A DNA stretch of 64,000 bases, from the NCBI GenBank assembly GCA_014728145.1, contig WJMC01000062.1, positions 558-64,557 on the forward strand. The letters run 5' to 3'. The position numbers are program-made. The DNA is from Candidatus Zixiibacteriota bacterium (GTDB lineage Bacteria > Zixibacteria > MSB-5A5 > JAABVY01). Position 1 is the stretch's first letter. Each line of letters begins with the position of its first letter. Below, piece after piece: positions 1-12,000 of the stretch.

Positions 1-3000
1 CAGGTTGATCTCGCCGGCCGGTATACCTTCAGAACCCAGGCTGTATATAAAGACCCTCATCAGGTCACCATCGACACTGTAATCCAGCTTCATGTTGCTG
101 ATATCAGCCGACTTCTCGATGTACGGCACCGATTCAGCGCGTGAGAGATCGAAGACAAGCTGAGCCGCCCCTATATTGACTTCCGAGTTGGCGGTGATAC
201 CCAGCTCACCGTAACGCTGTTGCATGATCAGGTCGGTGCTGTTAGCAAAAGCGTTCAGCTTGGCCGGAGGCGCTAATTCACCGGTGATTACCCTGACCAG
301 GAAGATCAGGTCACCGACAGTCAGCGCGCGACCATCGCCGTTGACGTCAGACGCCGCGACCTGTCCATCGTAATTGATATCGAACACCGCCGGGCCATAG
401 ATAAAATAGTTGGTATACAGCACAGCGTCGGCAATCTCATAAGGTACCGCGTTCATGTTCAGGTCACCGCGGTCATCGATCGAATCAGGATGAATGATAC
501 AGATCGAACCGTTATGCATGAGCAGACACCTGACCGGGTTGAGCTTATCACCAACCAGGCAGGAATCATCCGCGCCAACATTCGGGTAACGATCTTCATT
601 CGGGTAATTGACATCATCGAGCTCATCCCAGAACACACCATACGGATTGTAAATGATTTTATCGATGAAGAGAGAATCTCCCTTCTTGTTCGAGAAGACG
701 TTATCACCGCAATCGAACCAGTAGAAATCTACCGGGTATGTCATACCGCCGAAATTCTGATCCGAGGTGATATAGAAGTTCATGACCGCGATAGTGCCGT
801 TGATATCAAAGGCTTCGGCCGGCGGATGAGGCGCGCCATTGTTCTGGTCGGCGATAGAGATGATCCTCACCAGACCATCAGGGCAGACACCGGTACAGCC
901 ACCGACATTGCCGGTAACGTAGGTGAAGTATTCCCAGTCTTCTGTGGCATCACCGCGTGTGACATCGATCAGGGAGAACGCAGTCGGATCGAATTTTATC
1001 AAGAGATCGAAACCGCCCATCGGAGTTTCAACAGCGGTTGTAATTTCGACATTGACATAATTATTGGTCGGGACACATTCGGTCTCTTCGATCCAGATTT
1101 CGGCACAGGAGCCGGTATCGCAGTTTTCGTTGATATGGACATAATACCAGGCCGTGTCGAGATCATAGGCTTCACAGCTATCGGAGACCTTGTAGACAAA
1201 CATGATCGTGTCATTCAGAAGCGGCACGTTGAAACAGGTCTGCCATGACCCGGAATCAAAGCTTCCCGGACCCTCGACTTTTTCTACCGTGAGTTCATTG
1301 ATTTCATCATCAGGATCGGAAATGGTGATACCGTCGAAACAGACCTCCACTTCACCGCCACCTGTACCGCAGTACTCATAATACATGCTGTCAGGGTCTA
1401 CGGTAATAGTCGGAGGCTGGTTCAGGACAAGGTTGATATCGACAGTTTTTTCATCGTAATCACCGCAATGATCAGTCACACGCACCGTGATTGTAAAACT
1501 GCCGGCTCCTGAAGGTGTGTAGCATACCTGGCCATTTTGATCGATAGTAGCACCCTGGGGAGCGTTGGTCAGGCTGTATGTCAACGTATCTGCGGGCAGA
1601 TCGATATCGGTCGCGGAGACATCGAAACAGATCTCTCCCGGTTCGCACATATTCATGGTGATATCATCCGGGACAGTAAGCTCCGGGGCGTGATTGCCGG
1701 CCAGTACCAGGCAGGCCTCGGCTTCACTGTAATCACCGCAGACATCAGTAGCGCGCAATTTGATACAGTAAATTCCAAATGAATCGATCGGTATACAAGC
1801 CTGTCCGTTCTGGATAGTTCCCGAGCCGATTACGAAAGTGACTTCGGGCTCACCACCATCCGGATCGGAGGTGGTGAAATCGAAACAGTACTGATCCGGA
1901 AGATCGCAGACTTTCATGCTGGTATCGGACGGAAGACTGATCGTCGGGGGCAGGTTATAATGTATATTGACATTGATAGTATCTTCAGCAGTCGCCTGGC
2001 AATCATCGGTTGCCCGCACTATCACCTGGAAGGTCGTATCCTCTGAGGCTTCGGCCGAGAAACAGACCTGGCCGTCATCATAACTGCCGTTCGGAAGCAC
2101 TTCAACCGTGAACTGGTTGTCCGGATCGGAGATATCGGCCATGAAACAGACCTGTCCCCCTGAGACACACAACGTATCGAAAATATCATCCGGAAGCTCA
2201 ACTTCAGGTGGCATATTGACCTGGACAGTAACCACGACATCAGCAGTATCAGCAAGCTCGCACTCATCGACAACCCTGAAGCTCAGGTCGTAATCGCCGG
2301 GCTGATCCGGAAGGAAGCAGAAGAGTCCGGTCTGTGGATCGTAATTGCCATCCATTCCGTCGATTTGCTCGAAAATAAGTTCTTCATCATCTGGATCGGA
2401 ATAGCCGACCTCGATACAAACTGAATCGCCCAGCTCGCAGAAGGATGCGGTATCGAAAGGCTCGGCCGAAATAGTCGGCGGGCTGTTGAGTTCGATCGCG
2501 ATCATGATAGTATCCTGATCGATTTTACCGCACAGGTCGCGAACCCTGATAATAAATTCATAATTACCAGCCTCGAGCGGGGTGAAGCAGACTTCACCGG
2601 TCTGCGGATCGACCGCGCCAAAACCGGCTACCTTGATAAAGGTCAGGGTATCGCCGGGAAGGTCGGGATCGCCGAAATCGGTCGGACTGAAACAGACTTC
2701 CTCGAGGTCGCACAGGCTGAGTGAGTAATCAGCGGGAAGCTCGATATATGGATCATGATTCAGGCTGATTGACATAACCACCGTATCGATATCAGCCACA
2801 ACGCATTCATCTTCTACTTTGACCACGAACTGATAAGATCCTTCATCCTGCGGGAAGAAGCATACCTGGCCGGTTTCAGAATCGATCGTTCCGGGACCTT
2901 CCAGGAGCGTGAAGGTATGATTATCTGCAGAATCGGGATCATCGACTTCAGCTGTAAAACAGACAGTATCCGGATCAGAGCAGAAGTAGTAACTTGTATC

Positions 3001-9000: not shown

Positions 9001-12000
9001 CTGAACCAGAAGACCTGTCTGCTCAGGAACAGGTCATAACCGGAAGCGTCAGAGATAGTATTGTCGGTACAATCCAGCCAATAGAAGTTGATCGGAACGT
9101 ACTGGCATTCGTAAGTCCTGTCATCAGTCACGTAGAATGTGAGATTAGCAACAGTTACGGAATCGTAATCCCACTGTGAAGCACACGGATCAGGATGGTC
9201 CTGACCGTTGTTAACGTCATTTATACCAATAAGTCTCACCAATCCACTCGGACATTCACCGCCACAATTGCCGAAGGGGCCTTTACGGAAAGTAAAGTAT
9301 TCCCAACCGCAGTTGTCCAGTGTCTCACCCAGAGAAGCCTCAGTAAATGTCAGCGCCGCGGCGTCGTACTGAATCAGAAGTTCAAAACCACCCACGGTAG
9401 TACCATCCGCAAAGACGGTAATCGGAACATTTACGTACTCACCCTGCAAGACAAAATCGAGACCATCAATGTCCTCAGGAACTTTACTGATCTTGACCTC
9501 AAGACCAAGTACTTGAATCTCGAAATCACAGTATACGGTGTCAGCCTGATCGGTCAGACCGATCGTGACCGGGTGTATACCAGTGAATTCGGGTTCGTCA
9601 TCGGTATCCCATGACCAGAATGCGATAGCACCGGAATCCGGGACTTCGACGACCGAATCGATAACGAGCGCGCTACCCAGAATATCCGGGCCGTCGCTAA
9701 CGAAATAGTCGAGAGGGCCGGGGCAGGTCGGATCATCTGGATCCCAACCCTGAACCTGGCCTTCAGCCGTCTCACCAAAGCTGACTGAAACTACGCTAAT
9801 ACCGTCGTAATCGGCGGTATATTCAGGCGGACAGTAAGTTACCTCCGGCTCCATGTTCAGGATCACCACGACAAAGTCGCACTGAGCTTCCTGACCATAG
9901 GTATCGGTCACTTTGACGGAAACGTTATGCGCGCCAACTTGACCAACGGAGTTCCAGGTCCACTCACCGGTTGTACCGTTGATAGAGCCCGGACCACTGA
10001 CCATCGAGAAGGTAAGCTCCTCGTTACAATAACCGAGATCGATATCGTCAGCCTCAAAATCGTAGTTCGCAGGTTCGTTACACTGGAAGAGCAGATCTTC
10101 TGTGGGGCAGTTGGTGAACTCAGGCGGATTGTCAACGACTTCATAAGTACCCATGACACCGGTAACAGCTTCTTCAGCACAATCAGCCAGGAACATGGTA
10201 GTGGCAGAAGTATAGGCATCGATATCCCAAGTCAGACCAGTCGGTGTAATAGTGAAGATGCCCTCACGGCAATCCACATCAACCGTTAAAGTGACAGCAA
10301 CTGTTTCACCCGCATTAAGGATCGGATCACAGGCGCCCAGGTTCATTCCCCAGAAACGGAACAGGTCATCGGTCGGACCATCGACCAGCGAAAGGTCGGA
10401 GCCGCCGCTACCAGCCGCGAGGTTGAAACTGACGTCCGTGACAGTAGCGAAGGAACCGCCATCGGCGACCTCGGCCACAACATCGAACATATTGATCGGG
10501 CTATCTGCAGTAACTTTCATCTCAATGGTCTGGTCGGTGCGGCCAACTGAAAAGGTGTTGTCAATAAACTCCACCGTAACGTCAGCCAACGCAGAGCCAG
10601 CAAAGATAAGAAGCATTAACGAGGTCAGCAAAGAAAGAATTGTAAGATTTTTTTGCTTCATTACAATGCTCCTTTAAGGTTTAATTCAAACTACCAACTT
10701 GATTCCTCGGATAATATCCTCGGCTTCCCCCCTCTGGGACGGAAGTTGGCAGCTCAATTTACAAGCACCAAATGTCTAAATATGTATGGGCAAATTTATA
10801 CTGGGGATAAAGCAGATAATAATAAAGATATTATCGCAACATGTTTATTCTTATCACTTAGGTAGAAGCAATAAAAGGTTTTGTAGATAGCTTTAAAATA
10901 CTTTTTTCCCTAGACACCCCTAAAATAGGACTATTCCCCGCTTTGTCAAGTAATTTTTAAGAAAAAAACAGGATTTTTTCACTTATTTAGCCACCTCCTT
11001 AAATACTTATACAAAGCCCGTACAAACCCCGCATCACATGCCTCATCCATTAATTATCAATCAGGCAACTGTGTCCGGACGCCAGCAGATCATTCTCGAT
11101 CGTAAATAATAATCCCAAACGCGCCAATTATGTATATGCGCATATGCGCATTACTGTATCACCGACCAAAAAAGAACAGCCGGTCGAAACCGGCTGTCAC
11201 AATTCCGCTTAAATCAAAACCACTGACTGACTACATCGATACCTGCTCGGTCGTGGCATAAGCATCGAAAATAAGCAGGACTTCATCATCCAAAGTAAGA
11301 AGATCTTCGGTCGGTATCACGATTCCGAAGGCGGAGAGCTTGATATTCAATTCGGCGTTGATATGCAGGACATCGCCGGTAAGCTCCAGGTTCTTCTCGG
11401 TCAACGGTTTGGCCGCGATATAAGTCATAAACATGCGGATATTGCCGACCGGAACGGTCTGACCATGAAGTGTTAACTGTCCTGAACCGACTAAACTGAT
11501 CTCGGTATTGTCCTCAAGCTGGTAGGAAGACGGTGACTCGATCCTCGTAAGTTTAAATGTCGCCGTCGGATAGTTGGCGATATCGAGATAGCTTTCCGAC
11601 ATCAGAAGCGAATCGCGCTGAGCGTTGCCGGTATACAGCGTCGAAAGCGGGATTTCCAGGTTCATAGAAGGCATCTGGTATCCGGCCGGGGGCTCGATTA
11701 CCGGAGTCGTATCAACCGCCTCAGGCTCTTCAGCTTCCTCTTCAGCACCGGGAAGAGTTTCGGTCAGCGTTTCATCCTGAGCCTCATCCAGGATTGAATC
11801 GACCGGAGTTTCCTGCGGTTCTTCCTCGACCTGTTCCGACTCGGTCTCAACCGGTTCCGGTTCCTCTTCCTCGACCTGTTCGACCAGCATGATCGAATCC
11901 AGCCAGACTTCAACCTCACCGGTTACTCCGCTTACAAATCCGCCCAGCATTCCCATCGGCGCACGGGTATCGAAACGGACCATCCCCTGAACCATCAGCA

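Follow-up and report, generated by a model that had tools for sequence, protein, structure and literature searches.

Two genes on the minus strand of a 64,000-nucleotide stretch of a Candidatus Zixiibacteriota genome (contig WJMC01000062.1, positions 558 to 64,557; the whole stretch is referred to as the window) code for putative surface proteins that share a C-terminal cassette of about 500 residues. The cassette is composed, in this order, of a cohesin-fold domain, a dockerin-like module, an immunoglobulin (Ig)-like beta-sandwich and a type A sorting domain of the T9SS (type IX secretion system). We propose, at what we would call an even balance of probability, that a cohesin-dockerin surface assembly without cellulolytic function exists in which the two proteins form the tier anchored at the membrane. 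The observations behind this proposal are domain composition, homology, hidden Markov model (HMM) matches to the sorting domain and modular shuffling of the family; structural models complement them.

A C-terminal cassette shared by two predicted T9SS cargo proteins

The product of the first gene, an open reading frame (ORF) named ORF_A (Table 1), is 100% identical to the NCBI protein P0001, deposited as 'T9SS type A sorting domain-containing protein [candidate division Zixibacteria bacterium]'. The second frame, that of the large paralog, is open from position 4491 down to the window start and has an ATG at 4477-4479 preceded by AAGGAGG. The first-pass annotation of this DNA had placed the C-terminus of the large protein outside the window, and a homology search recovered it: the first 1493 residues of P0121 (1613 amino acids, aa) are identical to the windowed large paralog, and its last 120 aa supply the missing end. 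Both P0121 and P0001 are listed under a single contig of 65,993 nt, which belongs to a metagenome-assembled genome (MAG) named 'candidate division Zixibacteria'. The same annotation had described the two genes as adjacent paralogs. The proteins are indeed homologous (33% identity over 633 aa, BLASTP E 6e-71), but the genes are not adjacent, because a kinase gene and a nuclease gene separate them. The homology extends beyond the dockerin-like block that had first drawn attention and covers the whole cassette, the alignment starting with the last Ig-like repeat and stopping where the window ends. Upstream of it, the passenger region of ORF_A aligns with the Ig-like repeats of the large paralog, whose repeat array matches Big_9 (65.2 bits) as well as K319L-like PKD, PKD, Big_13 and He_PIG.

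In both proteins the curated HMM recognizes a bona fide type A T9SS sorting domain, located at the extreme C-terminus. In ORF_A, aa 811-885 score 47.5 bits with TIGR04183 (cutoff 23), as the first-pass annotation had anticipated, and 42.4 bits with PF18962 (cutoff 27). The large protein, which could have lacked such a domain, proved to carry one in the end recovered from P0121 (TIGR04183, 41.1 bits at aa 1536-1610 of 1613). Signal peptides were recognized by inspection on both, reading MKQKNLTILSLLTSLMLLIFAGSALA/DV in ORF_A and MCRKCSFLTLFFLPLACLLLLAPSTMA/GP in the large paralog.

The domain directly upstream of the block had been missed in the first-pass annotation. We modeled aa 385-888 of ORF_A with AlphaFold2 from 32 sequences (mean predicted local distance difference test, pLDDT, 76). 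Over residues 1-220 of this segment, which hold the cohesin-fold domain, the block-mean pLDDT is mostly 74-93 and the strands are placed confidently; three 10-residue blocks are low (52-61) and the loops of the inserts fall below 50. Foldseek searches of the PDB with this domain returned type I cohesins (4uyp_A, 1g1k_A and 5nrk_A) with probability 1.0 and target template-modeling (TM) scores of 0.70-0.81, and the non-cellulosomal Archaeoglobus cohesin 2xdh with a target TM-score of 0.74. The high-TM single-domain matches are cohesins only, and the top match is Clostridium perfringens GH84C (2w1n, E 2.2e-8, 12% identity). Residues 385-607 of ORF_A are thus predicted to adopt a cohesin fold, a nine-stranded jelly-roll beta-sandwich, that can be superposed on solved cohesins. 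At the equivalent position, relatives pass the cutoff of Pfam Cohesin (PF00963, 24.1 bits), namely P0172 (28.8), P0173 (27.8), P0211 (36.6), P0214 (29.8) and P0226 (82.0 bits), and sub-threshold matches are present in 13 of 32 cassette members. Relative to solved cohesins the domain has about 80 inserted residues (about 227 alignment columns vs targets of about 143 residues), and the insertions carry conserved cysteines. Since a cohesin-fold domain lies directly upstream of the block, the cassette proteins are possible receptors.

The cysteines of the cohesin-like domains comprise an invariant C-x3-C within 'NCGGECPSG' and the conserved C135, C147, C199 and C225 (numbering of the ORF_A segment). 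The large-paralog lineage lacks both C135 and C225 and has a cysteine three residues earlier, which may reflect a covarying disulfide.

The dockerin-like blocks of the two proteins are identical at 50 of 70 positions (71%), vs 33% over the entire alignment, a degree of conservation that is therefore far beyond chance and that upholds the near-identity first reported for them. In ORF_A the block starts 199 aa upstream of the T9SS domain, in agreement with the initial estimate of about 200. Mean pairwise identity is 74% for the block, 65% for the sorting domain, 50% for the cohesin-like domain and 44% for the beta-sandwich. Canonical dockerin loops follow the 12-residue pattern D-x-[ND]-x-D-G-x-x-x-x-x-D. 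In both loops of the block the distal acid is found at position 13 rather than 12, and position 5 of loop 1 is N where the canonical pattern has D. All 46 family members examined retain D1, N3, N5, E10 and D13 in loop 1 and N3, D5, G6 and D13 in loop 2, while D1 of loop 2 is kept in 45 of 46. Given this invariance the loops look functional. The block thus differs from canonical dockerins by its 13-residue loops, its internal position and its asymmetric halves, which are dissimilar, whereas in the window's canonical dockerins one half is nearly a duplicate of the other.

Profile comparisons and models of the block all point, each weakly, towards a dockerin. Its profile has the Clostridium thermocellum dockerin 4fl4_A as single best PDB sequence match, a weak one (E 0.13), and a second block profile likewise has a dockerin, 3ul4_B, as its best and equally weak match (E 0.11). 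Against the four canonical dockerins of the window, hhalign gave a probability of 66.6% (E 5.4e-5, 57 columns; individually the matches are weak) and aligned both loops, with a one-residue gap in each. In the AlphaFold2 model of the ORF_A segment the block is helical with low confidence, and when modeled alone (pLDDT 69) it follows the order loop-helix, short helix, loop-helix, as in a dockerin; a Foldseek search with this model returned no match. Sub-threshold Dockerin_1 (PF00404) matches occur in 10 of 32 cassette members. The block might have belonged to some other named family, yet none claims it, the sole other Pfam match being a weak one to FG-GAP (13.7 bits). This weak but concordant evidence from profiles and models suggests that the block is a divergent dockerin module lying outside PF00404 as now defined.

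The linkers of the cassette are short and conserved, of about 10 residues between cohesin and block ('..CADSIDxRGD..') and about 15 between block and beta-sandwich ('..GDAxPxPKLxPFA..'). The second beta-sandwich of ORF_A, which takes up aa ~693-800 of the AlphaFold2 model, is all-beta there, with a pLDDT of about 80-88.

Distribution and architectures of the cassette family

More than 2,500 proteins of a 90%-identity database, mostly from Zixibacteria, end in the cassette, and at source they go by no other names than 'T9SS type A sorting domain-containing protein' and 'hypothetical protein'. The distance between the end of the block and the C-terminus is 182-206 residues throughout the family. 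When the cohesin and dockerin part served as query in an exhaustive HMMER search, 1,723 clusters (50% identity level) were retrieved, 1,419 of them at E <= 1e-10, and we classed the architectures of the best 140 of these 1,723 clusters with local HMMs. The architecture of the window proteins, a single cohesin with a single dockerin-like module and a T9SS domain, is present in 95 of the best 140; 2-5 cohesins are combined with a T9SS domain in 21 of them, and at least two cohesins are followed by a terminal canonical dockerin instead of a T9SS domain in 14 (16 by eye). Cohesin and dockerin-like modules do not occur 1:1 across relatives. Among those ending in a canonical dockerin, five examples have an organism named at source: four come from Zixibacteria MAGs (P0211, P0214/P0350, P0217 and P0233) and the fifth is labelled 'FCB group bacterium' (P0226; FCB, Fibrobacterota-Chlorobiota-Bacteroidota). 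In P0211, P0226 and P0234 Pfam Cohesin and Dockerin_1 both score above threshold, with the dockerin C-terminal. Modules that are independent, shuffled and repeated, together with alternative C-terminal 'addresses', are hallmarks of scaffoldin building blocks.

Two relatives, P0234 (aa 739-1318) and P0272 (aa 736-893), carry insert-bearing cassette cohesins and canonical, Pfam-detectable cohesins in one polypeptide, and they carry both dockerin classes as well. The presence of two cohesin classes in these proteins hints at two orthogonal cohesin-dockerin pairs.

At the other extreme, P0208 and P0209 (281 and 296 aa) consist only of a signal peptide, the dockerin-like module, the beta-sandwich and the T9SS domain, with neither cohesin nor passenger. 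A search for further dockerin-only mini-proteins of this type found only the query and its neighbour. On a complete Zixibacteria chromosome (OY760907.1, locus L008, 2786-7401), four tandem cassette-only genes, those of P0208 and P0209 among them, code for proteins with lipoprotein-like signals (..LSCSD..). The two other tandem genes of this locus also have a cohesin-like domain, and one of them (440 aa) lacks the T9SS domain and may be truncated.

Genome contigs were scanned with the generic T9SS motif NxPNPFNP, which gave 80 loci, the source genome not being among them. The cassette is present in 8 of the 80 loci, and in 2 of these 8 a canonical-dockerin gene lies directly upstream on the same strand (L002 3-866 and L007 3403-4542). 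In L002 a gene at 4486-6879, coding for a protein with dockerin-like module and beta-sandwich and no cohesin-like match, follows the cassette gene. Several MAGs with full cassette proteins (L001, L004, L006 and L007) are labelled Ignavibacteria, Ignavibacteriales or Calditrichaeota, which means either that these bins are mislabelled or that other members of the FCB group besides Zixibacteria have the cassette.

Table 1. Features of the window. Coordinates are window positions, residues are those of the encoded protein, and bit scores refer to Pfam models.
Feature	Coordinates	Strand	Residues	Basis or remark
ORF_A, predicted T9SS-sorted surface protein (whole gene including stop codon)	7995..10661	-	888 aa	ORF list, translation
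ORF_A signal peptide MKQKNLTILSLLTSLMLLIFAGSALA	10584..10661	-	1-26	Read by eye: hydrophobic core, A-x-A site
ORF_A variable N-terminal passenger, Ig-like	9510..10583	-	27-384	Weak He_PIG match at aa 226-266
ORF_A predicted cohesin-fold domain with Cys-rich insertions	8841..9509	-	385-607	AlphaFold2 and Foldseek
ORF_A divergent dockerin-like module	8619..8828	-	612-681	
ORF_A beta-sandwich between dockerin-like module and sorting domain	8250..8603	-	687-804	AlphaFold2, local HMM
ORF_A T9SS type A C-terminal sorting domain	7998..8231	-	811-888	TIGR04183, PF18962
Large paralog, windowed part	1..4479	-	First 1493 of 1613	Last 120 aa, including sorting domain, beyond window start
Large paralog DUF4114	3901..4134	-	116-193	PF13448, 36.9 bits (cutoff 27)
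Large paralog, about ten Ig/PKD/Big_9/cadherin-like repeats	1126..3882	-	~200-1118	
Large paralog predicted cohesin-fold domain	499..1104	-	1126-1327	Local cassette HMM, E 4.9e-66; aligned with ORF_A domain
Large paralog divergent dockerin-like module	274..483	-	1333-1402	Local HMM, E 9e-40
Large paralog beta-sandwich, start	1..258	-	1408-1493	Local HMM, E 5e-18; cut by window edge, continues in P0121
ABC1/UbiB kinase gene	6131-7816			Between ORF_A and large paralog
PD-(D/E)XK nuclease gene	4911-6134			Between ORF_A and large paralog
S8 subtilase with C-terminal dockerin, candidate client	22651..24372	+		Peptidase_S8 151.7 bits, Dockerin_1 30.7 bits (cutoff 22.9)
PQQ-type beta-propeller protein with C-terminal dockerin, candidate client	30419..34213	+		Dockerin_1 21.9 bits, aa 1196-1250
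M1 peptidase with C-terminal dockerin, candidate client	56619..58991	-		Peptidase_M1 98.3 bits, Dockerin_1 21.4 bits
BACON-domain protein with C-terminal dockerin, candidate client	59196..61505	-		BACON_2 83.7 bits, Dockerin_1 19.7 bits
PilM	20591-21643	-		Pilus-like cluster
PilN	19897-20589	-		Pilus-like cluster
PilO	19279-19881	-		Pilus-like cluster
Protein without Pfam match	17775-19268	-	497 aa	Pilus-like cluster
Secretin	16458-17762	-		Pilus-like cluster
GspH-like pseudopilin	21879-22382	-		Pilus-like cluster

A candidate surface assembly and the alternatives

Four other proteins encoded in the window end in canonical dockerins, made of two segments GDANxDGxxxVSDAVYIINYxF; they have signal peptides and lack a T9SS sorting domain. 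The local canonical-dockerin HMM matches all four strongly (the propeller protein at E 4e-33), a result that is circular because the HMM was built from the same four sequences. Measured against known scaffoldins, which have multiple tandem cohesins, the window proteins have one cohesin-like domain each and relatives have 2-5. The surface anchor expected on a cohesin-bearing protein is present as a T9SS domain, in place of an S-layer homology (SLH) or sortase signal, and dockerin-bearing secreted proteins are encoded in the same genome, four of them within the window. A Pfam scan of the window's dockerin and cassette proteins found no glycoside hydrolase or carbohydrate-binding module (CBM) family, and so neither the cellulases and hemicellulases nor the cellulose-binding module of a cellulosome.

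The first-pass annotation had cast the cassette proteins as anchors or hubs for the dockerin set, an idea that we find plausible from domain content and model, because a cohesin-fold domain precedes the block and the family includes multi-cohesin, scaffoldin-like proteins. In the assembly that we envisage, Sec would export both proteins and the T9SS would carry them over the outer membrane, where the sorting domain would be cleaved and the new C-terminus fixed to the cell surface. Cleavage of the C-terminal domain (CTD) by PorU and anchoring to anionic lipopolysaccharide are established in Bacteroidota (PMC4804311, PMC9143113); surface anchoring of the cassette proteins is carried over from there by analogy. 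The beta-sandwich, dockerin-like and cohesin-like modules would then sit by the membrane with the variable N-terminal passengers outermost, so that ORF_A would display its Ig-like domains and the large paralog its DUF4114 domain and about ten Ig/PKD-like repeats. Cohesin and dockerin modules would serve as calcium-dependent docking sites that tie surface proteins to one another and also reach multi-cohesin adaptors without a sorting domain, and secreted enzymes with canonical C-terminal dockerins would be recruited directly or through these adaptors. On the evidence of sequences and models, we infer secretion, cleavage, anchoring, calcium binding and cohesin-dockerin binding alike.

The insert-bearing cohesin could bind the 13-residue-loop dockerin in a type-II-like pair, canonical dockerins, or both, and we regard these options as roughly equally probable. 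The 13-residue-loop pairing is favoured because dockerin-only anchors exist and the block is extremely conserved; the pairing with canonical dockerins is favoured because these replace the T9SS domain on adaptor-like relatives. Tentatively, as something that we hold possible rather than probable, the surface assembly could be extended to a two-tier, T9SS-anchored cohesin-dockerin exoproteome on the outer membrane of Zixibacteria. The insert-bearing cohesin and the 13-residue-loop dockerin would then be an orthogonal anchoring pair, analogous to type II, joining T9SS-fixed proteins, including the passenger-less dockerin-only anchors, to CTD-less multi-cohesin adaptors, while the canonical dockerins on peptidases and other secreted proteins would belong to an enzyme-recruiting pair.

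Several observations weigh against a docking role. In the window proteins neither module reaches its Pfam cutoff: Cohesin scores 17.7 bits in ORF_A and 18.0 bits in the large paralog, and Dockerin_1 (cutoff 22.9) scores 12.2-13.1 bits for the ORF_A block (E 0.1-0.2) and gives no match in the large paralog. Among the larger ORFs of the 64-kb window there is no match to T9SS machinery (PorK/L/M/N, SprA, PorU, PorV), and the CTD-less dockerin proteins carry no sorting domain for crossing the outer membrane. The canonical cohesins of some relatives would be more obvious partners for canonical dockerins, and the canonical-dockerin neighbours seen in 2 of 8 cassette loci are judged not to exceed a base rate of about 1 per 16 kb in the window. 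The list of the best 140 clusters is biased to multi-repeat proteins, because those score higher. Finally, the short conserved linkers fit a rigid stalk as well as they fit docking modules.

Such a stalk, in which the cohesin-like, dockerin-like and beta-sandwich modules would form a rigid calcium- and disulfide-stabilised spacer with no partner and the proteins would be T9SS-displayed adhesins, is the main rival explanation, credible but doubtful. Besides the short conserved linkers among the three modules, it draws on the fixed distance of the cassette from the C-terminus, on the conserved cysteines, which suggest a stabilised extracellular scaffold, and on the exactly one cohesin and one dockerin-like module that precede the sorting domain in 95 of the best 140 clusters. 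However, some relatives have extra cohesins without dockerin-like modules, and others the dockerin-like module, beta-sandwich and sorting domain without cohesin or passenger; as a stalk, these passenger-less proteins would have nothing to display. Moreover, the block is more conserved than the folds that flank it, as is typical of an interaction surface, and a canonical dockerin replaces the sorting domain in multi-cohesin relatives, as in adaptor scaffoldins.

Jelly-roll beta-sandwiches, to which the cohesin fold belongs, also serve sugar-binding modules, and the cohesin-fold domain could bind a non-protein ligand such as a polysaccharide or a mineral surface in the manner of a CBM, with the dockerin-like loops giving structural calcium only. 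The roughly 80 inserted residues could make a new binding site, and the passengers are adhesin-like Ig/PKD/cadherin-type repeats. We nevertheless consider such ligand-binding adhesins quite unlikely: the high-TM single-domain matches include no CBM, relatives pass the Cohesin HMM cutoff, and the family co-occurs with canonical dockerins in Zixibacteria, even in single polypeptides. Little probability is likewise assigned to the block being an unrelated, convergent pair of EF-hand-like or FG-GAP-like calcium loops with no cohesin-dockerin logic. The low Dockerin_1 scores (12-13 bits for ORF_A, none for the large paralog), the weak FG-GAP match, the loops of 13 rather than 12 residues and the lack of a Foldseek match all speak for it, as does the failure of the cassette-dockerin and canonical-dockerin HMMs to detect one another within the window. 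On the other side stand the predicted loop-helix, short helix, loop-helix layout, which is that of a dockerin, and the location of the block, which directly follows a cohesin-fold domain and belongs to a family that employs cohesins and dockerins of the canonical kind as well.

The order ORF_A-kinase-nuclease-large gene is kept in a genome of 65% identity and not in one of 53% identity. Conservation only in the closer genome reflects relatedness rather than an operon, and we rejected an operon-type functional link on this ground. A YceI-like gene (11231-12241, minus strand) is the immediate upstream neighbour of the ORF_A ortholog in all genomes examined (L081, L083 and L084), in one of them even where the remaining neighbourhood differs. 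Just behind the signal peptide of ORF_A, a stretch of ~140 residues is kept in the orthologs and matched no Pfam family, PDB sequence or cohesin profile; a second, N-terminal cohesin at aa 27-165 was rejected (hhalign probability 2%, no meaningful PDB match). Elsewhere in the window, a type IV pilus or type II secretion-like cluster (16458-22382, minus strand) sits between the gene for an invasin/Big_1 surface protein (14242-16440) and the S8-dockerin gene, and has the same order in the related genome L081. That this cluster could be the export route of the CTD-less dockerin proteins is speculation.

Comparison with known systems and significance

In the cellulosomes of clostridia and ruminococci, anchoring scaffoldins combine a cohesin with an SLH or sortase anchor, primary and adaptor scaffoldins have many cohesins and an X-module-dockerin, and the enzymes carry type I dockerins. 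The window host, in contrast, is a diderm with a T9SS domain as anchor. The cassette has the dockerin before the beta-sandwich, whereas in cellulosomes the X-module precedes the dockerin; its linkers are short and not Pro/Thr-rich, its loops have 13 residues, and its dockerin lacks dual-binding symmetry because the two halves are dissimilar. The candidate clients are peptidases and BACON and PQQ proteins, not cellulases.

The closest parallel lies in Cloacimonadota, where a 3,755-aa scaffoldin-like protein of 'Candidatus Stygibacter' with tandem cohesins, CBM2/CBM3 and a T9SS C-terminal domain was inferred from the genome (PMC8542988), together with S8 and C25 peptidases and enzymes of GH18 and GH57 that bear dockerins (Williams et al. 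2021, PMC8542988). Both cases concern the FCB superphylum, a cohesin-bearing protein with a T9SS domain and dockerins on signal-peptide enzymes including an S8 peptidase, and in both a cellulosome-like structure acting on polypeptides and polysaccharides is deduced from genomes only. They differ in that the Cloacimonadota protein is described as one large scaffoldin with CBMs, whereas here at least 1,700 protein clusters, mostly from Zixibacteria, reuse with varied passengers a compact cassette that joins one cohesin to an atypical dockerin and a beta-sandwich, and neither glycoside hydrolases nor CBMs were seen.

Many bacteria and archaea are known to have cohesins and dockerins outside cellulosomes (PMC9012536), and a role in surface assembly has been proposed for cohesin/dockerin proteins of anaerobic methanotrophic (ANME) archaea and Archaeoglobus fulgidus (Chadwick et al. 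2022, PMC9012536). As in the cassette family, single archaeal polypeptides combine a dockerin with one or more cohesins in organisms that do not degrade cellulose; unlike it, the archaea have no outer membrane or T9SS, and standard domain models recognize their modules. In A. fulgidus, the cohesin binds dockerins of its own protein pair. C. perfringens GH84C (2w1n) resembles the cassette in that a non-cellulosomal cohesin is followed by a beta-sandwich (cohesin-FN3) and assembles secreted proteins or toxin complexes, but the organism is Gram-positive, cohesin and dockerin are on separate enzymes and there is no sorting domain. Type A cargo of Bacteroidota such as the gingipains resembles the window proteins in its Sec signal peptide, its TIGR04183/PF18962 domain at the C-terminus and the Ig-like domain that precedes this. 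We know of no cohesin-dockerin cassette preceding the CTD of Bacteroidota cargo, and a search of titles and abstracts found no report of one. Literature searches likewise retrieved no paper in which Zixibacteria are connected with dockerins, cohesins or such T9SS cargo, and nothing on Latescibacteria with dockerin and cohesin. Four features appear to be new: the compact cohesin/atypical-dockerin/beta-sandwich/sorting-domain cassette, the fact that thousands of proteins reuse it, the dockerin subtype with 13-residue loops, and the coexistence of T9SS-ended and canonical-dockerin-ended multi-cohesin proteins.

Cohesin-dockerin assembly is textbook knowledge for Gram-positive cellulosomes and a favoured toolkit for synthetic protein scaffolds; to our knowledge it is barely documented in diderm bacteria. 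If the proposed surface assembly is correct, it would represent a widespread way to organise the outer-membrane exoproteome, aimed at peptides and proteins rather than cellulose, and would offer a way into the function of no fewer than 1,700 protein clusters, for which the present labels say just 'T9SS sorting domain-containing' or 'hypothetical'. The 13-residue loops might also provide a new orthogonal cohesin-dockerin pair for protein engineering. If the two-tier extension were true as well, a phylum-wide 'peptidosome'-like machine with thousands of members, today annotated just as T9SS-domain or hypothetical proteins, would exist in a diderm bacterium. Either outcome would bring ecological context to Zixibacteria, an uncultured phylum of sediment and soil.

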